Source of the DNA: Bacteroidota bacterium | GTDB lineage: Bacteria > Bacteroidota > Bacteroidia > AKYH767-A > 2013-40CM-41-45 | NCBI GenBank assembly: GCA_043747595.1 | Contig: JAYTOX010000055.1 | Span: 1,254 to 65,253 of the forward strand | DNA length: 64,000 nt | Direction of reading: 5' to 3' | Shown: in pieces, positions 10,005 through 60,947 of the stretch | Layout of the letters: each line of letters begins with the position of its first letter | How positions within the stretch are numbered: the stretch's first letter is position 1 | Notes under the pieces: model-generated | What the model was told of the DNA's origin: nothing | The model's input: the letters and a program-made list of their open reading frames with translations, nothing else | Databases searched by the model: none | Position numbers and translations under genes: made by a program

Positions 10005-10757
10005 ATGAAAATTTCGATATACCTACTTTTACTTTCAATTCCTCTTGTAGGTCAATCACAAAGTATAAAATCGACAACACCAACACAGAGAGTCGAACAA
10101 GCTTATCTGAACGACACAACCTTTCAAAAAGATGCCTTGAATTATGAGTTGATAAATGTTATAATACATTCCCCAAAAGGAATTGTGATTGCTCAAGGAT
10201 CTTTAAAAAACAAAAAACGAGAAGGAACATGGCGAGAATATAATAATCAGGGATTGTTTGCAAACATCACTGAATATCATAATGGAATAAAGCATGGTGC
10301 AAGTATTAAATTTGGCATGAATAATTTAGTAGTTACCGACGAAACATATTCAAGAGATTCTTTGAATGGAATAAAACTTACATTTAATTCAGGTGGAAAA
10401 ATAAAGATTACAGAAAATTATGTTAATGGGGTTTTAGATGGAGATCGAAAAGCGTTCTATGAAAACAACAAACTTCAAGAAGAATCAACTTATAGAAATG
10501 GTTTACGAAATGGCATTGCAAAATGGTATTTTCAAACAGGAACACCTTCAATTGAATACAATTATAATATGGGAGAATTGAATGGTCCATCGAAAGAATA
10601 TTCTTCAAATGGATTAATCTCGAAAGAAGGAAATTATATCAATAACGCGGAAGAAGGCGAATGGAAAATTTACGATGATTCACTTTTGGTTAAAAAAATT
10701 ATTTACAAAAATGGTATTGTAATAAAAGAACAAGAATTAAAGAAGGAGAAAAAATAA
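10005..10757 (+). CDS. MORN-repeat-variant protein (YwqK-like family), secreted or lipoprotein
   Basis: It has a signal peptide and repeated G-x-W-x-x-Y/E-x-N-G-x-L units typical of the MORN_2/YwqK family. The TAA stop overlaps the next start (TAAATG). Confidence 0.7.
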   Translation: MKISIYLLLLSIPLVGQSQSIKSTTPTQRVEQAYLNDTTFQKDALNYELINVIIHSPKGIVIAQGSLKNKKREGTWREYNNQGLFANITEYHNGIKHGASIKFGMNNLVVTDETYSRDSLNGIKLTFNSGGKIKITENYVNGVLDGDRKAFYENNKLQEESTYRNGLRNGIAKWYFQTGTPSIEYNYNMGELNGPSKEYSSNGLISKEGNYINNAEEGEWKIYDDSLLVKKIIYKNGIVIKEQELKKEKK

Positions 10758-11246
10758 ATGTATTATCCAAGTAATAAATTAGATGACAATTCTCGTGTTT
10801 GGATTTATCAAGCCAACAGAGAATTTACAATTGACGAACAAGTAGAAATTGCTCATGAACTAACAACGTTCATTACAAATTGGACTGCTCATCAAAAAGA
10901 TTTGAAAGCAAGTTTTGAAATATTGTTGAATAGATTTATTGCTATTATGGTTGACGAAAGTAATATAGGCGCAACCGGATGTAGTATTGATAAATGCTTA
11001 CACTTTATTCAAAAATTAGAACAGAAATACCAAATAACTTTAACCGATCGACTTCTATTGGCATACAAAGATGCTGATGAAATAAAAACTTTGCAAAAAA
11101 ATATATTCGAGCAAGCACTAGAATCCGGAAAATTAAATAGTGATACGATTGTATTTAATAATTTGATCAGTAAAAAATCAGAATTAAAAACTAATTGGCA
11201 AGTACCACTAAAAAATAGTTGGCATAGCGTAATGCTCAAGGTATAA
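10758..11246 (+). CDS. Hypothetical cytoplasmic protein, translationally coupled to the MORN-variant gene
   Basis: The 162-aa ORF starts 1 nt after the upstream stop. I do not recognise a family. Confidence 0.6.
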   Translation: MYYPSNKLDDNSRVWIYQANREFTIDEQVEIAHELTTFITNWTAHQKDLKASFEILLNRFIAIMVDESNIGATGCSIDKCLHFIQKLEQKYQITLTDRLLLAYKDADEIKTLQKNIFEQALESGKLNSDTIVFNNLISKKSELKTNWQVPLKNSWHSVMLKV

Positions 11247-11285: not shown

Positions 11286-12077
11286 CTACTTAGCAAAATC
11301 CTTTTTCAACGATAGCTCTATCGGACAATGATCGCTACCAAGAACTGTTGAATGAATAGAAGCATCAACAACAGAATCTTTCATTTCAGAACTGATCAAG
11401 AAATAATCTATTCTCCATCCTGAATTTCTTTCACGAGCTTTTGTAAAAACATCCCAGTAAGTATACTGACCAGGCAGGTCATTGAAAGTTCTAAAAATAT
11501 CGATGTAACCATATCCCAATATTTTATCGACCCAAGCCCGCTCTTCAGGAAGAAACCCGCTAACTTTTGAATTAGGACCTGGGCGAGCAAGATCAATTTC
11601 TTTATGAGCTGTATTGTAATCGCCAACAACGATTATATTTTTTTTGATTTTTCGTATTTGTTCAGTTCTCTTAAAAAGTTCGTCATAAAACCGAAGTTTG
11701 TAATCAACCCTCTCCGGCCCTCTTCCTCCATTAGGAAAATAAACATTAAAAAGCACAAAATTTTCAAATTCTAATTCAAGTACTCTTCCTTCGCTATCAA
11801 ATTCGGCGTTATTAAATCCGTACTTCACATTAACAGGTTCTAATTTTGTATAGACCGCTACTCCACTATATCCTTTTTTTTCGGCAGAGAAATAGTAAGC
11901 CTTGTACCCATCAATGTTTTTAATTTCATCAACTAGCTGATCCGGCTGTGCCTTAGTTTCTTGCAAGCAAATGATATCAGCACCATCTTTCTCCAACCAT
12001 TCTTTAAAATTTTTTTTCCATACCGCACGCAAGCCGTTAACATTCCAACTAAGTATTCTAAAATTTCCTTTTGCCAT
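11286..12077 (-). CDS. xth: Exodeoxyribonuclease III
   Basis: The N-terminus reads ILSWNVNGLRA...ICLQETK and the C-terminus reads SDHCPI, matching the EEP-family Xth signature. The product is 263 aa. Confidence 0.9.
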   Translation of the reverse strand: MAKGNFRILSWNVNGLRAVWKKNFKEWLEKDGADIICLQETKAQPDQLVDEIKNIDGYKAYYFSAEKKGYSGVAVYTKLEPVNVKYGFNNAEFDSEGRVLELEFENFVLFNVYFPNGGRGPERVDYKLRFYDELFKRTEQIRKIKKNIIVVGDYNTAHKEIDLARPGPNSKVSGFLPEERAWVDKILGYGYIDIFRTFNDLPGQYTYWDVFTKARERNSGWRIDYFLISSEMKDSVVDASIHSTVLGSDHCPIELSLKKDFAK

Positions 12078-12284
12078 TAGAGATTAATTTGAAGCAAGAT
12101 AAAAAAATAAATCAAGCCAATAAAACCTCAAACAATTAATAATAAGTTAACTGTTAAAATGACAATCCTCATTTAATAAGGAACAATTTTCAAACCACAG
12201 ATACGCGGTTGTGATTACATGCCTGAGCACCGATATTTGTATCATCAATTTCATTTAATAATTAAAAACTAAAACCAAATCAAA

Positions 12285-12650
12285 ATGAAAAAACAAATTC
12301 TTTTAGTAGTAGGACTTTTTTTCTCCTTAGTGATGCAATCCTCGGCATTCAAAATTATAATCATAGGAGGGACTCACAACCACAGATTCGATTACACATA
12401 TTTCGATGACGAAAAATGTGTTTGCAAAGGCAGAGGATGGAATGATTGTGCTATTACATTGAATTCTCACGCAGCTGAAAAAGTTATCCCTGGAAACAAA
12501 ATCGTTGATGCTGTATTGGAAATGCTTGACGAAGGAAAAACAGAAGGCGAATTTACATTCGAAGATGTATTACCAGTTTCATTTGAAACAGACAAAGAAG
12601 GCGTAACTACAATTACCACAAAAGAAGACTATGTTACATTCAATAAATAA
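12285..12650 (+). CDS. Small secreted hypothetical protein
   Basis: The 121-aa product has a signal peptide, a CVCKGRGWNDC cysteine cluster and an acidic C-terminus. I do not recognise a family. Confidence 0.5.
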   Translation: MKKQILLVVGLFFSLVMQSSAFKIIIIGGTHNHRFDYTYFDDEKCVCKGRGWNDCAITLNSHAAEKVIPGNKIVDAVLEMLDEGKTEGEFTFEDVLPVSFETDKEGVTTITTKEDYVTFNK

Positions 12651-13851
12651 CAAGTCTATTAACCGAGGATCATTATTGATCCTCGGTTTTACATTTTTCT
12701 CAGCAATGAGATTGATGGCACATGATCTGAATTCAGATAGTGTAGCTACTATTAAGACAGGATTACTGGCATTGAATCCGGAAGTAATTCAAACTCGAAC
12801 AGGAGGAGCATTGAGTTTTACAACTACAAGTCTTTGGAATAAAGAGAAACGAGAGCTAAAAATAATAGTTTACGACCCGGTTTCAAAAAATAAAAAAGAG
12901 CTAAAAGGGATTATTCCTCAGAACATCACAATTCAGGCATTACCGACTTATGCAATAAATACAAACTATATTATTATCCAAGACGATGACGAGATGGATT
13001 TATATTTATTCAGATTATCAAATACTAATTTCGTTTTTAAAAATAAAATAAAGTCTCCAACTCGCAGTAAGTTTTTCAATATTAATTTTCTAGAAGGCAA
13101 TACATTCCTCTTCACAGACATTTACAATCATCATCCGGCCGAAAATAAATACAATGTAAGCTTGAGTATTTATGATGCAGCTAAAAATGAAATTGTAAAA
13201 ACAATTCATCCGGAATTACCATGTATTGCACTTTCGCATATAAAACATCGGTGGGTAGAATATAATTCGGAAAATATTTTTTTAGCCGAACCATGCGGAA
13301 ATACAATTCATGTATACAATCATCAGTTAAAAGAAGAAAAAATAATTCATATTGAAAATTATAGCAAGTGGGTTGATTTGCCAAAATCACAATTACCCTT
13401 TGAAACATCAACCGATAAAATTCATCCCAAACTACTTATCGAAAAATTAAAACCAATAATACATTCATTTAATCATATTGAATTTATTTCAGTAGTCAAT
13501 GACACATTGCTTTTTTTAAGCTGTACGAATAGCGATAGCATAAGCAATAACGAAAGTATTGCTTTTATTTACAATTTAAAGGAAGATAAATTTAAGAATC
13601 ACATAGAATTTACTCGAAAGTCTGAACAATGGATCAATGATCCAATCAGTGAAGAATTGACATCCATCTTCAATTCAAAATTATTAATCGGCAACAAATC
13701 AATCTTCATTTCAAGCGATTCATACAGACCTGATACGAATTTAAGTTACAAAGAAAACCAACAATTAAAAGACAATTATTATGAAACGAATAACCCGGAA
13801 TTTATTATTGAGCTGGTCCCTCTTCATCACATTTTACCCTTTTGTGAATGA
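12631..13851 (+). CDS. Hypothetical secreted protein
   Basis: The 406-aa product has a signal-like N-terminus. It overlaps the upstream gene by 20 nt and the downstream ORF by 71 nt. No family recognised. Confidence 0.5.
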   Translation: MLHSINNKSINRGSLLILGFTFFSAMRLMAHDLNSDSVATIKTGLLALNPEVIQTRTGGALSFTTTSLWNKEKRELKIIVYDPVSKNKKELKGIIPQNITIQALPTYAINTNYIIIQDDDEMDLYLFRLSNTNFVFKNKIKSPTRSKFFNINFLEGNTFLFTDIYNHHPAENKYNVSLSIYDAAKNEIVKTIHPELPCIALSHIKHRWVEYNSENIFLAEPCGNTIHVYNHQLKEEKIIHIENYSKWVDLPKSQLPFETSTDKIHPKLLIEKLKPIIHSFNHIEFISVVNDTLLFLSCTNSDSISNNESIAFIYNLKEDKFKNHIEFTRKSEQWINDPISEELTSIFNSKLLIGNKSIFISSDSYRPDTNLSYKENQQLKDNYYETNNPEFIIELVPLHHILPFCE

Positions 13852-14308
13852 AATAAAAGCTGCAAATTCAAATGGAGAACCATACACTATCGATAATACA
13901 CATTTAAGTTTATACGATCTGAATAACAAGCCACTCCTACTCGATCAAAACCAATCTTATCTAATAGTTATTAAAAATATCAAGAGTTGTTTAAATTGCT
14001 TTTCCACCATTCAAGATTATTTGGTTTCACTAAATGCCGATACAATTAATGAATGGTTAATTATGGAAACCGATTCATCTACATTACAAAGACGGAGAAC
14101 CATATATGAAGCGAAAAACCTTTTTAGCCGCTTCAGTTATTATGGAGTTACCTATGATCAATCATTGTCAAATCTTCAAACTCCCATTTTGATTCTCTTT
14201 CATAAAAATAATTACTATCAATACAACTACGACGAATTATTTGAAGAAGGATTTAATTTTATCAGTTTTTCAGTTCAAAAGAAAATAAAAGAAATTCTTG
14301 GAAAATAA
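13781..14308 (+). CDS. Hypothetical secreted protein with a CxxC motif (possible thioredoxin-fold)
   Basis: The 175-aa product has a hydrophobic N-terminus and an SCLNC motif. The 71-nt overlap with the upstream ORF makes the start uncertain. Confidence 0.45.
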   Translation: MKRITRNLLLSWSLFITFYPFVNEIKAANSNGEPYTIDNTHLSLYDLNNKPLLLDQNQSYLIVIKNIKSCLNCFSTIQDYLVSLNADTINEWLIMETDSSTLQRRRTIYEAKNLFSRFSYYGVTYDQSLSNLQTPILILFHKNNYYQYNYDELFEEGFNFISFSVQKKIKEILGK

Positions 14309-15186
14309 TGAGACTCGAATGGACAATATCTTTATTTTTAATTTTGACGGTGAATCAACTTATAGCTTCACCAGCCGATACCTTGACTACAAAGTATGAT
14401 TCCATTAGAAATCAAAAAGAGATTGATGTCATTTTAAGTGCTAATGTTTCTCAACAGAAAAATATAGAGGAAACAACTATAAACATACTAACCCTGGCTT
14501 CAAAAATAAATTATTACAGTGCATCTATTTTCACAAAATATAGGTCTAAAAAAGAGTTAAGTATCAATTATTCATATTCGCACTATATCGACAGCCTATG
14601 GATAAAAACAAACGATCAACTTTATTATTCTTATAATTGGTCAAAAAAAAACAAAGGGTTTAGCAGATCATTAATATTTAATTTGAAAACACAATTAACA
14701 AACACCGAAATTAGAACTAGAATAGAGACCAGATTGATTGGACAGTTTGGATTCCCTTCAATTTTAAACCTAGGAATCGGAATAAATTTTCAGTTAAAAG
14801 AGGATAATTATCTTCACTTTTCGTTGTTAAATATTCAAGAAACTTTTATTACTTCTAAACTAGATTTAAATCGCAAAGAATTCAAAAGACTAAATCACGA
14901 TTTCGAATTTCAACAGCAGTTGGGAGTATCGGTTGTCTCGTCACTCAAATTTAAGTTAACAAAAAAAGTAATTTACAGGAATAACTCCAAATTATTTATT
15001 CGAGGATTAAAAAACAATGATATGAATTTCGACATTAGAAATCAATTCATTGTCGACATTTACAAAAAAGTTAAGATATGCCTTGACAATCGAGTATTTT
15101 TCAACCCACTTATTCAGACAAATATTCAAATGAGCAATGAAATTTTATTAGGAATTGGGATTAACAGATCACCAAATTTAGATTGA
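14308..15186 (+). CDS. Hypothetical outer-membrane beta-barrel-like protein
   Basis: The 292-aa product has a signal peptide and alternating aromatic/hydrophilic strands, with a C-terminal aromatic-rich end. Its start overlaps the upstream stop (ATAATGA). Confidence 0.5.
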   Translation: MRLEWTISLFLILTVNQLIASPADTLTTKYDSIRNQKEIDVILSANVSQQKNIEETTINILTLASKINYYSASIFTKYRSKKELSINYSYSHYIDSLWIKTNDQLYYSYNWSKKNKGFSRSLIFNLKTQLTNTEIRTRIETRLIGQFGFPSILNLGIGINFQLKEDNYLHFSLLNIQETFITSKLDLNRKEFKRLNHDFEFQQQLGVSVVSSLKFKLTKKVIYRNNSKLFIRGLKNNDMNFDIRNQFIVDIYKKVKICLDNRVFFNPLIQTNIQMSNEILLGIGINRSPNLD

Positions 15187-15194
15187 AGTAAAGT

Positions 15195-16481
15195 TTATAA
15201 GGCACGATGTTCTTTATCAAGATCTAATTCTCGTAATTTTGGGAGCCATAAAAAAGCTCCTGCTACTGAGAAGATGGCTATACCTCCACCTAATACAACA
15301 GATTGAATTAATCCGATAGCTTTTGCAGCGAAGCCCGATTCAAACGCACCAATCTCATTGCTAGAACTAATAAACATTGTGCTAACGGAAGTAACTCTAC
15401 CTCTCATTTCATCAGGAGTAAAATATTGAATGATAGTTGAACGAATAACGACACTTACATTATCGAAACCACCACTAAGAGCAAGGATAATAAATGACAA
15501 ATAGAAATTCTTGCTAAGTGCGAAGAAAATCATACAGAGTGAAAAGCCTGCAACACAAGTCATCAATTTCTTTCCTGCATTTTTTAGCGGCGGATACTTT
15601 GTCATATAAAGCGCCATGGTCACACTCCCAACAAAAGGAGCGGCTCTTAAAATCCCGAATCCCGTTTCGCCAACGTGTAATATTTCACTTGCAAAAACAG
15701 GCAACATCGCCGTAGCACCACCAAAAAGGACAGCGACGAGATCAAGTAACATTGCGCCAAAAATCATTTGATTGCTAAACACAAAACTCAAACCTTGCTT
15801 GATACTGGCTCTCATACTTTCGCCTTTCTCAAACGGCTGTGGAGGTTGTTGAGGAATTCTAATAATCTGAATCGTTCCAATCAACAATAATACGACTACA
15901 ATAACATACACATTCATGGCTCCATAGGCTGCCAGTAACAATCCTCCGGCAGAAGAACCTAAAACAACGGCAATATGCCAAAAGGTAGAATTCCAAGCAG
16001 AAGAATTTGCATAAGCTTCTCTCGGAACGAGCTGTGTCATTAATGGAAATTGTGCCGGACTATAAAAACCTCGCAAGACGCCTACAACAAAAACAATTAT
16101 GTAATACGGATAAACCTGAATTAATGATGCAGAATCTGTTCTCTGGTAATAGGTGAAATAAACAAGTGCCAAGCTTGCTATAAGTTGTATAATCATTACG
16201 ATCATAACAATTCTTCTTCGATCGTTTCTATCAGACACATACCCGCCGTAAAGAGCTAAAGTAACAGCCGGAATAGCTTCGAAAAGTCCAAGAAGACCGA
16301 GCGAAAGATAATCGTGCGTCATCTGATACACTTCCCAACTGATAACCACAAATTGAATTTGCAGAGCAAGAGTTAGCATAAACTTTGAGAAGATAAACCG
16401 ACGGTAATCGATAAATCGAAAAGCTAAAAATGATTCCTTATTTTCAATCAGTCTTCTAATCATTGATGTAAATAACGGCAA
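15195..16481 (-). CDS. MFS transporter
   Basis: The 428-aa product has about 12 transmembrane helices and a D-R-x-x-R-R-like loop motif (SDRNDRRR) between TM2 and TM3. Confidence 0.85.
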   Translation of the reverse strand: MPLFTSMIRRLIENKESFLAFRFIDYRRFIFSKFMLTLALQIQFVVISWEVYQMTHDYLSLGLLGLFEAIPAVTLALYGGYVSDRNDRRRIVMIVMIIQLIASLALVYFTYYQRTDSASLIQVYPYYIIVFVVGVLRGFYSPAQFPLMTQLVPREAYANSSAWNSTFWHIAVVLGSSAGGLLLAAYGAMNVYVIVVVLLLIGTIQIIRIPQQPPQPFEKGESMRASIKQGLSFVFSNQMIFGAMLLDLVAVLFGGATAMLPVFASEILHVGETGFGILRAAPFVGSVTMALYMTKYPPLKNAGKKLMTCVAGFSLCMIFFALSKNFYLSFIILALSGGFDNVSVVIRSTIIQYFTPDEMRGRVTSVSTMFISSSNEIGAFESGFAAKAIGLIQSVVLGGGIAIFSVAGAFLWLPKLRELDLDKEHRAL

Positions 16482-18452: not shown

Positions 18453-18489
18453 TTTATTATTATAAATATTTTAATGAACAAGGACTGAT

Positions 18490-18745
18490 TAATGAAGAAT
18501 TAATAACTAATAATTAAGAATTAAGAATTAAGAATTGAGAATGAATAATTAGTAATGAATAATTGGCAATGGAGAATGAGTAATGAATAGTTGGTTATGG
18601 ATCATTAGTAATTGATAATGAATAATTGGTAATGAATAATTGGTAATGAATAATTGATAATAAATAATTGGTAATGAATAATTGGTAATGAATATTTTGG
18701 AATTAATAATTAGGAATAAATAATTAGGAAATGATTATTTGAAAT
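18490..18745. repeat. Degenerate A/T-rich tandem array of 7-bp (aattaag) and about 14-bp (aatgaataattggt) units in the ABC-F 5' region
   Basis: About 17 imperfect copies can be read directly. The region falls between the start of the ABC-F gene (18452, minus strand) and the stop of the upstream minus-strand gene (18806). Confidence 0.8.
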
Positions 18746-18748
18746 ATG

Positions 18749-18767
18749 ATTGTCTTATTAAGACAAT
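18749..18767. promoter_or_regulatory. Perfect 19-bp palindrome attgtcttaTtaagacaat, a candidate operator
   Basis: It is an exact inverted repeat around a single central base. It lies 40 bp downstream of the stop of gene 18806-19342 and about 300 bp upstream of the ABC-F start. Confidence 0.4.
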
Positions 18768-18805
18768 ATTACTCATTATTCATTTCTCATTATTCATTTA
18801 TAAAA

Positions 18806-21706: not shown

Positions 21707-21793
21707 GGTGAGGTGCCTGAGTGGCCGAAAGGAACAGTTTGCTAAACTGTCGTACGGGAAACCGTACCGAGGGTTCGAATCCCTCCCTCACCG
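21707..21793 (+). tRNA. tRNA-Ser (anticodon GCT), class II with a long variable arm
   Basis: The acceptor GGTGAGG pairs with CCTCACC. The anticodon loop is tTGCTaa. It has a long variable arm and a T-loop GGTTCGAATCC. CCA is not encoded. Confidence 0.9.
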
Positions 21794-21852
21794 CACGTAT
21801 CTTTTGGAGGAAACAGATTAGAAATAAGGATTTCTAACAAATAATATTTATT

Positions 21853-21927
21853 CGGGGTGTAGCGTAGTCCGGTTATCGCGTATGGTTTGGGACCATAAGG
21901 TCGCAGGTTCGAATCCTGCCACCCCGA
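21853..21927 (+). tRNA. tRNA-Pro (anticodon TGG)
   Basis: The acceptor CGGGGTG pairs with CACCCCG. The anticodon stem-loop is tatgg-tTTGGGa-ccata. The T-loop is GGTTCGAATCC. Confidence 0.9.
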
Positions 21928-22028
21928 CAATTAGAGTGTAAGAGTAAGTGTTAGAGTAAGTAGTTTAAAGTAGCTTTTTGGCAAGATCACACTAACACAC
22001 TCAAAGTTCACACTCCAACTAACCTTCA

Positions 22029-22102
22029 GATTCCGTAGCTCAATTGGATAGAGCAACTGCCTTCTAAGCAGTAGGTTGTGGGTTCGATCCCCGCCGGGAT
22101 CA
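22029..22102 (+). tRNA. tRNA-Arg (anticodon TCT)
   Basis: The acceptor GATTCCG pairs with CGGGATC. The anticodon stem-loop is actgc-cTTCTAa-gcagt. The T-loop is GGTTCGATCC. Confidence 0.9.
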
Positions 22103-60574: not shown

Positions 60575-60938
60575 GGGGCTGCCTGGATTTGACAGTAAGT
60601 GAAATTGGTAAGTAAGCACGTCGAGGGTCGGGAATCAGCCTCGTAAAACACGGTTCTCAACTGCCTAACTGGCAACAATTCTTACGCGTTAGCTGCTTAA
60701 TCAGAAGATTAATCAATTGACTACTTCCTGAAGACCTGTTCACCCGTTTTCTCCTTTGAAGTATCGTATGGTGAATGCTCTCCGATGATGTCTCCTGCAT
60801 CGGGTCTAAGATTCAAGGAACTAAGTTGCATAATAGCGTGTGTTTAGCAGTTATGTCGCCGACAATTAATGAACACTAAGCGTGTAGAAAGTTTATTGAT
60901 TGCTTGTCTGGACGAGGGTTCAACTCCCTCCAGCTCCA
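60575..60938 (+). ncRNA. ssrA: tmRNA (SsrA), about 364 nt
   Basis: The 5' GGGGCTG pairs with the 3' CAGCTCC plus discriminator A. The tRNA-like T-arm is GAGGGTTCAACTCCCTC. An internal tag reading frame ggc aac aat tct tac gcg tta gct gct taa encodes GNNSYALAA* (60671-60700). Confidence 0.85.
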
Positions 60939-60947
60939 CAAAAAAAA

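Follow-up and report, generated by a model that had tools for sequence, protein, structure and literature searches.

A four-gene operon for predicted exported proteins, one of them thioredoxin-like, in uncultured Bacteroidota

The stretch of DNA considered here, hereafter the window, comprises 64,000 nt of a Bacteroidota bacterium (assembly GCA_043747595.1, contig JAYTOX010000055.1, forward-strand positions 1,254 to 65,253). Four of its genes, denoted g1 to g4, raise the question of whether genes that resemble nothing described can still be recognised as one system and, if so, what this system does. A preliminary description of the window had regarded them as a cassette for secreted and outer-membrane proteins, possibly an envelope redox or small-protein maturation system. 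We find that they comprise a four-gene operon for predicted exported proteins, confined to uncultured Bacteroidota and without a described counterpart. Redox handling or small-protein maturation in the envelope stays the best reading of its role; g3 is a predicted thioredoxin-fold protein and g1 a small protein with a cysteine loop.

Four genes of undescribed families

The open reading frame (ORF) listing places g1 at 12285-12650 (121 aa), g2 at 12631-13851 (406 aa), g3 at 13781-14308 (175 aa), and g4 at 14308-15186 (292 aa), all on the plus strand and at the coordinates reported before. They lie between two minus-strand genes identified by the Pfam scan, an Exo_endo_phos/xth-type gene on the left (11286-12077) and an MFS_1/MFS_3 gene on the right (15195-16481). 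By these coordinates, g1 and g2 overlap by 20 nt and g2 and g3 by 71 nt, as previously described, whereas the third junction, thought to span 4 nt, shares a single nucleotide in the window (TAATG, position 14308); a 4-nt ATGA junction is found in most relatives. Read by eye, each of the four protein sequences opens with a basic n-region that leads into a hydrophobic stretch, in agreement with the signal-like N-termini noted earlier, and all four products are likely to be exported.

The relatives compared here are six GTDB species representatives and some ten contigs from metagenomes; in the most distant of them, g2 identity falls to 32%. In over 15 related loci, the ORFs of all four genes are intact. 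In comparison with the closest relative, the ratio of nonsynonymous to synonymous substitution rates (dN/dS) is 0.18 for g1, 0.17 for g2, 0.08 for g3, and 0.11 for g4, while for the flanking xth, MFS, and ABC-F genes it is 0.05, 0.025, and 0.03, respectively. Given values of 0.08-0.18, g1-g4 are real coding genes under purifying selection, with the constraint several-fold weaker than in their neighbours. The proteins and their orthologue sets had no meaningful matches in Pfam, NCBIfam, PADLOC, or PHROGs, the family scans yielding only sub-threshold noise (DUF3275 for g1; Pox_P35 and BrxC for g3), and the family profiles, deeper ones included, gave nothing significant against PDB sequences. None of the four matches a curated family, and the families are indeed undescribed. 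We found no account of such a module in the literature on this gene combination, on NVEALA/propeller loci, or on the function of DUF3078.

Related modules in other neighbourhoods show that the genes belong together. In six distant contexts with available DNA (L016, L017, L018/19, L020, L022, and L026), g2 and g3 are always adjacent, a g1-like gene is present in five (1-3 copies), and a g4 or DUF3078-like gene in two; most of these assignments are backed by profile E-values of 1e-5 to 1e-26. Two copies of g1 precede g2 and g3 in L016, beside lnt, and three copies do so in L026 and in L020, the latter beside a response-regulator gene. L017 carries g1, g1, g2, g3, and g4, while L018/19 has g2 and g3 only. 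The order is permuted in L022, where a DUF3078-like 277-aa gene is followed by g2, g3, and a gene for a 122-aa secreted protein with a Cys loop; the g1-like call there relies on the motif together with an hhalign match that is collinear but statistically weak, as is the corresponding match of g4. A seventh context, known by gene sizes only, has the same layout. Since g1, g2, and g3 are found together in several neighbourhoods unrelated to one another, even in a permuted order, g1-g4 form one functional unit, predicted to be exported and to contain a thioredoxin-like protein, as the preliminary description had supposed, and we hold this conclusion much more firmly than any specific model of its action.

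Regulatory genes also stand beside some distant modules, namely a Response_reg+GerE regulator (L020:2780-3463), a membrane sensor that reads like a PP2C/SpoIIE-type phosphatase (L018:2-1429), and a receiver-domain-like ORF (L026:7570-9375). Such neighbours hint at signal-controlled expression.

The suspected thioredoxin-like nature of g3 is borne out by structure prediction. The AlphaFold2 (AF2) model built from a 21-sequence alignment has a predicted local distance difference test score (pLDDT) of ~90 for residues 35-175 and a predicted template-modelling score (pTM) of 0.72. Its elements follow the order beta-hairpin, strand, CxxC, helix, strand, helix, strand, Pro135, strand, strand, helix. 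All 50 of the top 50 Foldseek PDB matches belong to the thioredoxin superfamily (E 1e-4 to 1e-3; target-normalised template-modelling (TM) scores 0.39-0.59), and they are mainly extracytoplasmic proteins: TlpA, ResA, DsbE/F, Etrx, SdbA, FetE, StoA, and the DipZ C-terminal domain. The CxxC motif, C70/C73 in SCLNC (13988-13999, plus strand), is invariant in 21 clade sequences and sits at the N-terminus of model helix 71-83. The likewise invariant T134-P135 (P135 at 14183-14185, plus strand) directly precedes strand 136-141, and no g3, distant ones included, lacks the CxxC or the (T/S)P.

At the sequence level, no Trx-like Pfam family was found at E≤0.1 among 10 members, the single BrxC match having E 0.17, and there was neither an NCBIfam match nor a PDB match with the 21-sequence profile. 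An hhalign comparison with E. coli TrxA aligned only the cis-Pro segment (TPILILF-IPTLLLF), with 6% probability. The g3 family comprises 23 clusters with no Pfam label, and a metagenome scan with the g3 profile recovered four loci only. As modelled, g3 is a thioredoxin-fold CxxC protein so divergent that its structure, but not its sequence, reveals the kinship, and we propose that it is a putative periplasmic thiol-disulfide oxidoreductase. The Asn of CxNC is clade-specific, as distant g3 proteins have SCSPC, SCEDC, NCLKC, and others; hence SCxNC, which we had considered as a meaningful link to DipZ and NHLRC2, was downgraded.

The first gene, g1, has a predicted Sec-type signal peptide at about codons 1-21 (A-x-A; cleavage between MQSSA and FKIII), followed by a mature part of ~100 aa. 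Both CVCKGRGWNDC in g1 and SCLNC in g3 are present as reported; of the g1 cysteine cluster, C47 and C55 are invariant in the alignment of 17 homologues (13-81% identity), while C45 is not conserved. What is kept is thus a C-x3-G-x3-C loop, C47-C55 (12423-12449, plus strand). The invariant mature residues are C47, G51, C55, and G88, the start Met is invariant as well, and there is no invariant Trp among the 17 homologues. No Pfam, PDB, or PHROG match was obtained for g1, all of its relatives belong to these modules, and in the distant ones its 1-3 copies are in tandem. Its Sec-type signal stands in place of a GG leader, and neither a leader peptidase/ABC exporter nor a cytoplasmic modifying enzyme, as expected for a bacteriocin or another ribosomally synthesised and post-translationally modified peptide, was found in the cassette among ORFs, Pfam, and NCBIfam matches.

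The product of g2, whose start lies inside the 20-nt 3' end of g1, has an N-terminal hydrophobic segment. Its AF2 model (pTM 0.61) is confident and all-beta in residues 50-240, and essentially all Foldseek matches contain beta-propellers, among them tetrathionate hydrolase, NHL domains, the exported protein BF0058 of B. fragilis, methylamine dehydrogenase heavy chain, and Kelch; the E-values are ~1e-7, but the TM-scores only 0.3-0.4. By this model, g2 is a predicted exported beta-propeller. A profile search of 1.84 billion representatives yielded 101 clusters (50% identity; E≤1e-3), all of ~400 aa. None of the 62 distant relatives scanned carries a Pfam family, and g2 itself matches no NHL, TolB_like, DUF5128, YVTN, or other propeller or repeat family of Pfam. 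Within the clade, cysteines C198, C222, and C298 are invariant, and the His motifs YNHHP, HPxxPCIALSH, and HPK are conserved; the three cysteines are missing in distant g2 proteins that retain a CxxC g3. YNHHP was considered as a catalytic motif and downgraded, as its loss in L017 argues against an essential catalytic site or an enzyme role for g2.

In g4, we see ~12 amphipathic beta segments and no transmembrane helix in the mature part, following the signal-like N-terminus. These features make the earlier beta-barrel proposal plausible, as does a sub-threshold similarity to DUF3078 (PF11276): three of ten g4 orthologues match it below the threshold. With the cut-off at 25 bits, the score is 17.3 bits for L017 g4 and 24.7 bits for the 277-aa protein of L022, and g4 of the window itself has no PF11276 match in the Pfam scan. 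A DUF3078-like outer-membrane beta-barrel is a plausible identity for g4.

Chromosomal slot, gene overlap, and transcription signals

Exact or close copies of the cassette are found only in metagenome assemblies and metagenome-assembled genomes of Bacteroidota. In every recovered relative the order is a MORN-repeat gene, a gene for a 162-aa protein, xth on the minus strand, g1-g4, and the MFS and ABC-F genes, again on the minus strand. Protein identity to the relatives is 75-86% for the flanks and 29-45% for the cassette, whose dN/dS is 3-7 times that of MFS/ABC-F. The GC content of the cassette (0.29-0.35) is slightly low relative to the window (0.356); GC content at third codon positions (GC3) is 0.27-0.29, and its mean for the window is 0.286. 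The constant xth/MFS slot in all relatives recovered and GC3 at the window mean speak against the idea of an accessory module inserted among housekeeping genes and led us to reject a foreign origin: the cassette is a lineage-specific, fast-evolving, resident part of the chromosome and no recent insertion.

The neighbourhood has some further features. The MORN-repeat gene, coding for a 250-aa protein with a signal-like N-terminus, and the abutting gene for the 162-aa protein, which has no Pfam family (together 10005-11246), are syntenic with the cassette throughout the clade and show intermediate divergence (46-86% identity). On the other side, the stop codons of g4 and the convergent MFS gene are 8 nt apart (15186-15195), and the terminator scan found no terminator between them, so the convergent transcripts should collide or overlap. 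Locus L009 matches the L010 type with 96-100% identity across 10.8 kb, save for a ~1.2-kb patch (L009:1250-2500; approximately 12000-13250 of the window) which spans the g1 promoter, g1, and the 5' half of g2 and is 99.3% identical to the window type; either homologous recombination has exchanged precisely that end of the operon which holds g1, or the metagenome assembly is chimeric. Farther away, a 353-nt intergenic region (18453-18805) with GC content ~0.25 and positive GC skew separates the ABC-F gene from a gene for a 178-aa protein without a Pfam family. The three-tRNA cluster (21707-22102) and the tmRNA gene (60575-60941; 140 bits) are ordinary.

The 71-nt out-of-frame overlap of g2 and g3 (13781-13851, plus strand), delimited by ORFs and clade comparison, codes for the C-terminal tail of g2, which is variable, and for the signal-like N-terminus of g3. 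It had been suspected of reflecting a frameshift or a mis-set start. Yet in all clade loci an ATG for g3, placed 47-98 nt before g2 ends, opens a basic and then hydrophobic N-terminus, and the overlap in L017 is 92 nt. As both frames are intact in every locus and distant modules carry separate g2 and g3, with overlaps of only 4-43 nt, the overlap is a conserved feature of the clade, with no frameshift and no fused gene.

This long out-of-frame overlap causes gene callers to mis-set the start of g3. In the public annotation of this genome, g3 starts from TTG at 13808 and has 166 aa; it is uncalled in Logan contigs L004-L006 (e.g., L004 2519-3022) and cut to 114 aa in JGI contig L007 (1988-2491). 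For annotation in general, the consequence of an overlap of 47-98 nt is that g3 will be shortened or missed.

Upstream of g1, the alignment of nine upstream regions reveals a promoter-like block (12205-12248, plus strand). It consists of GCGGTTGTGA (TTG at 12209-12211), a 20-nt spacer, and GATATTTG (12232-12239), the latter inside ATTTGTATCATCAA. Across the nine regions, GCGGTTGT and ATTTGT..CATCAA are kept while the surroundings have diverged, yielding the pattern GCGGTTGT-N20-GAtATTTGTATCATCAA, which we take to be a putative promoter of the Bacteroidota -33 TTG / -7 TAnnTTTG type. No separate promoter-like conserved block or spacing is seen between g1 and g2.

What follows g1 is a stem-loop (12661-12698, plus strand), identified by the terminator scan, folding, and comparison across loci. 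It begins 11 nt past the g1 stop, within g2 codons 11-23 (NRGSLLILGF), that is, in the signal-peptide region, and comprises a 12-bp stem (12661-12688) with six G-C pairs, the loop TTAT, and a T-rich tail TTACATTTTT. In the terminator scan it has the form of an intrinsic terminator, a G+C-rich stem-loop with a U-run. The minimum free energy is -20.2 kcal/mol versus -4.9 +/- 2.0 for shuffled sequences (z = -7.75), and none of 200 shuffles folds as well. A stem-loop occupies the same position in all related loci, with differing sequences; in L012-L015, it has the textbook A-tract/stem/U6 form of a terminator. In the clade alignment, 88% of cells are paired versus 30-52% with slid partners, and one pair shows a compensatory change from C-G to A-U in four sequences.

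The arrangement extends beyond the clade, as in every locus with available DNA and g1 upstream of g2 the last g1 copy is followed by a stem-loop (z from -4.8 to -12.1). The stem-loops of distant modules are unrelated in sequence to that of the window: a 25-bp stem inside g2 in L016 (z -12.1), a 12-bp stem with a U-run in L017 (z -5.9), and a 17-bp intergenic stem in L020 (z -7.1). The peptides encoded at the stem-loop differ between lineages (NRGSLLILGF, KNRGAFKALCF, IGRRMILFFCLL, and KITKHKIVYALLF), and hence the conserved object is the RNA structure, not the peptide. We consider it likely that this element keeps g1 in excess over g2-g4. In L016, the first g1 copy, too, is followed by a hairpin, a perfect A7-stem-U7 structure resembling a bidirectional terminator (L016:4732-4772), and each g1 copy there may be a transcription unit of its own.

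A possible client and its machinery

What, then, could this unit do? We tentatively propose, giving it somewhat less than an even chance, that g1 is an abundant client and that g2 and g3, with g4 where it is present, are a low-level periplasmic machinery for thiol-redox chemistry or handling of this client. A single promoter, the putative one upstream of g1, would start transcription of the operon, and the stem-loop would reduce the mRNA of g2-g4 relative to that of g1. It could do so by terminating a part of the transcripts or, where it has no U-run, by protecting their 3' ends. In that case g1 would be the abundant product, while g2, g3, and g4 would be made at a low level, being translated via overlapping or abutting frames. 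In the periplasm, g3 may act on the C-x3-G-x3-C loop of g1 by forming, isomerising, or reducing its disulfide. The g2 propeller would probably be a binding platform, and g4 could provide an outer-membrane anchor or an exit point.

We infer g1 to be the likeliest client of g3 because its Cys pair is the only one conserved system-wide, and because three of the four invariant residues of mature g1 are C47, G51, and C55. It is preferred over g2, as distant g2 proteins devoid of the clade cysteines still keep a CxxC g3. An excess of g1, in turn, is suggested by the stem-loop after the last g1 copy and by the tandem amplification of g1. For a thioredoxin-type active site that operates against the face of a propeller, NHLRC2 offers a precedent (PMC6107167).

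Several observations weigh against this proposal. A clear U-tract is missing from the stem-loops of L016 and L020, which can therefore be read otherwise than as terminators, and a terminator within g2 would be costly, yielding truncated g2 messages. Confidence in the g2 model is no more than moderate, its C-terminal half having pLDDT below 50, and YNHHP is not universal, being YDTSD in L017. Finally, L018 and L019 have g2-g3 and no g1 nearby, and g4, absent from most distant modules, may not be integral to the system.

Other readings distribute the roles differently. The client of g3 could be the propeller itself, g3 being a dedicated oxidoreductase of g2 in the manner of DsbL/DsbI and g1 a passenger or a small subunit. 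The invariant clade cysteines of g2 fit this, as do the status of g2-g3 as the most constant pair (six of six contexts, with L018/19 lacking g1) and the assT-dsbL-dsbI precedent cited in PMC6067686. Still, we consider it unlikely, as distant g2 proteins without those cysteines also adjoin a CxxC g3, the cassette has no DsbB/DsbI-like membrane partner, and the structural neighbours of g3 are of the TlpA/ResA rather than DsbA type. The mau cluster, with its heavy and light subunits and a MauD-like protein, suggests another layout, in which g1 and g2 would be the light and heavy subunits of a stable periplasmic hetero-oligomer matured by a MauD-like g3. Here, the sizes match (a propeller of ~400 aa, a small subunit of ~100 aa, and a thioredoxin-like protein of ~175 aa), and methylamine dehydrogenase heavy chains are among the Foldseek matches of g2 (ranks 4, 9, 12, and further), although the propeller matches are generic, with TM-scores of 0.29-0.30 for these chains. 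The light subunit of methylamine dehydrogenase is disulfide-rich and carries a Trp pair for the tryptophan tryptophylquinone cofactor, and the system also includes the di-haem enzyme MauG. By contrast, g1 lacks this Cys/Trp content, having two conserved Cys and no invariant Trp pair, and neither a MauG-like nor another haem protein was found in or next to the cassette among ORFs and Pfam matches. Since tandem g1 genes and the stem-loop point to an excess of g1 rather than to a 1:1 ratio, such an oligomer is decidedly unlikely.

The fast evolution of the cassette could alternatively mean that g1 is a secreted effector or surface protein, e.g., a bacteriocin-like toxin, an adhesin or fibre subunit, or a phage-exposed antigen, which leaves via the g4 barrel with g2 and g3 as helpers in folding or export. 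Apart from the far faster divergence than in the flanks, this reading would account for the tandem g1 paralogues, for the possible recombination patch of L009, which spans exactly g1 and the 5' half of g2, and for the layout of a small gene, a hairpin, and accessory genes, generally known to be typical of bacteriocin and pilin operons. Yet the cassette is fixed in one slot throughout the clade rather than strain-variable, dN/dS stays well below 1 for every gene, an immunity-like membrane protein, an ABC/C39 exporter, and a GG leader are all missing, and g4 is absent from most distant modules; we assign this reading a low probability. A metal module modelled on TlpA-ScoI and on the propeller zinc chaperone AztD, with a TlpA-like reductase keeping a Cys-loop metallochaperone g1 reduced and a His-rich g2 binding or passing the metal, seems very unlikely. 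The Foldseek neighbours of g3 do include TlpA-ScoI and TlpA-CoxB complexes, Sco proteins, and FetE, and g2 has several conserved His motifs, but the match of g2 to AztD is very weak and not significant (E 2.5), L017 lacks YNHHP, the Cys pair of g1 is not accompanied by any CxxxC or His-rich metal motif, and no metal transporter is consistently linked outside the clade. Least credible of all, and in our view highly improbable, is that the four genes are neighbours without any relation, g1 being monocistronic and the hairpin no more than its terminator. The absence of a known function for any of them and the canonical look of the terminator in L012-L015 would agree with that, whereas the joint occurrence of g1, g2, and g3 in several unrelated neighbourhoods, even permuted, the overlap of frames at every junction, and the lack of a promoter-like block or spacing between g1 and g2 would not.

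Known systems with similar parts

Whatever its exact action, the module adds four families without a curated model, the g2 family alone accounting for ~100 unnamed clusters at 50% identity, and g3, as far as its model goes, extends the extracytoplasmic thioredoxin-fold proteins by a separate and highly divergent branch. The grammar of small gene(s), stem-loop, propeller, thioredoxin-fold gene, and an optional DUF3078-like gene makes it a defined target for functional genomics in Bacteroidota, and the stem-loop clearly exemplifies an RNA structure that is conserved within a signal-peptide coding region. If g1 is indeed the client, the module would be a tractable bacterial model of the cooperation between a thioredoxin domain and a beta-propeller.

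Among known proteins, g3 is closest to the TlpA/ResA/DsbE(CcmG)/Etrx type. The predicted fold with the N-terminal beta-hairpin extension, the CxxC at the start of helix 1, and the N-terminal export or anchor segment are shared, and the conserved (T/S)P before strand 3 may correspond to the cis-proline loop. However, there is no detectable sequence similarity (Pfam Redoxin, AhpC-TSA, and Thioredoxin_8; PDB), g3 has S-C-x-N-C instead of W-C-x-x-C, and it is not linked to genes for the maturation of cytochrome c or oxidase.

Bacteriocin, lantibiotic, and pilin loci are operons in which a structural gene is followed by a hairpin and accessory genes. The cassette is similar in its small, sometimes tandem first gene, the stable stem-loop, and larger accessory genes, and the expected outcome, an excess of the first product, would also be the same. 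It differs in that g1 has a Sec-type signal, in that there is no ABC/C39 exporter or usher, and in that the stem-loop is embedded in the following gene's coding sequence. As for g4, its orthologues and the L022 277-aa protein align over nearly the whole 92-position model of DUF3078, although with scores of 17-24.7 bits, under the cut-off of 25, and with g4 of the window unmatched. DUF3078 proteins of Bacteroidota are associated with the outer membrane, and they are present in outer-membrane vesicles of P. gingivalis (PMC12937337).

In uropathogenic E. coli, assT-dsbL-dsbI provides a dedicated disulfide system for a periplasmic beta-propeller arylsulfate sulfotransferase (Grimshaw et al. 2008, as cited in PMC6067686). 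Both systems have a gene for a periplasmic propeller, in the cassette a predicted one, beside that for its own thioredoxin-fold partner. Unlike assT-dsbL-dsbI, the cassette contains no DsbB/DsbI re-oxidase, g3 is TlpA-like rather than DsbA-like, the g2 cysteines are not family-wide, and g1 and g4 have no counterpart.

The combination of a TlpA-like thioredoxin domain with a propeller is also known from NHLRC2, where such a domain with the motif CC(I/V)NC is fused to a six-bladed NHL beta-propeller and its active site faces the propeller cup (PMC6107167). The motif of the C-terminal domain of M. tuberculosis DipZ is SCINC, and bacterial homologues of NHLRC2 have no conserved operon context (PMC6107167). 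The SCLNC of g3 is near SCINC and CCINC, the DipZ C-terminal domain is among the Foldseek matches of g3, and NHL propellers are among those of g2. On the other hand, a fusion in NHLRC2 corresponds to separate genes in the reversed order, propeller and then thioredoxin, in the cassette; no sequence homology was detected; NHLRC2 is cytosolic while the cassette products are predicted to be exported; and a candidate client gene is linked to the cassette. The likeness is one of functional analogy only. Extending the analogy, one might imagine a split thioredoxin/beta-propeller pair that matures the abundant Cys-loop protein g1, which would then be displayed or released via a DUF3078 barrel. We regard this as quite unlikely; if true, it would provide a natural client for a thioredoxin-propeller pair and a first function for DUF3078. 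Among the systems compared here, the cassette is an undescribed variant of the theme in which a dedicated periplasmic thioredoxin-fold partner is encoded together with its client.

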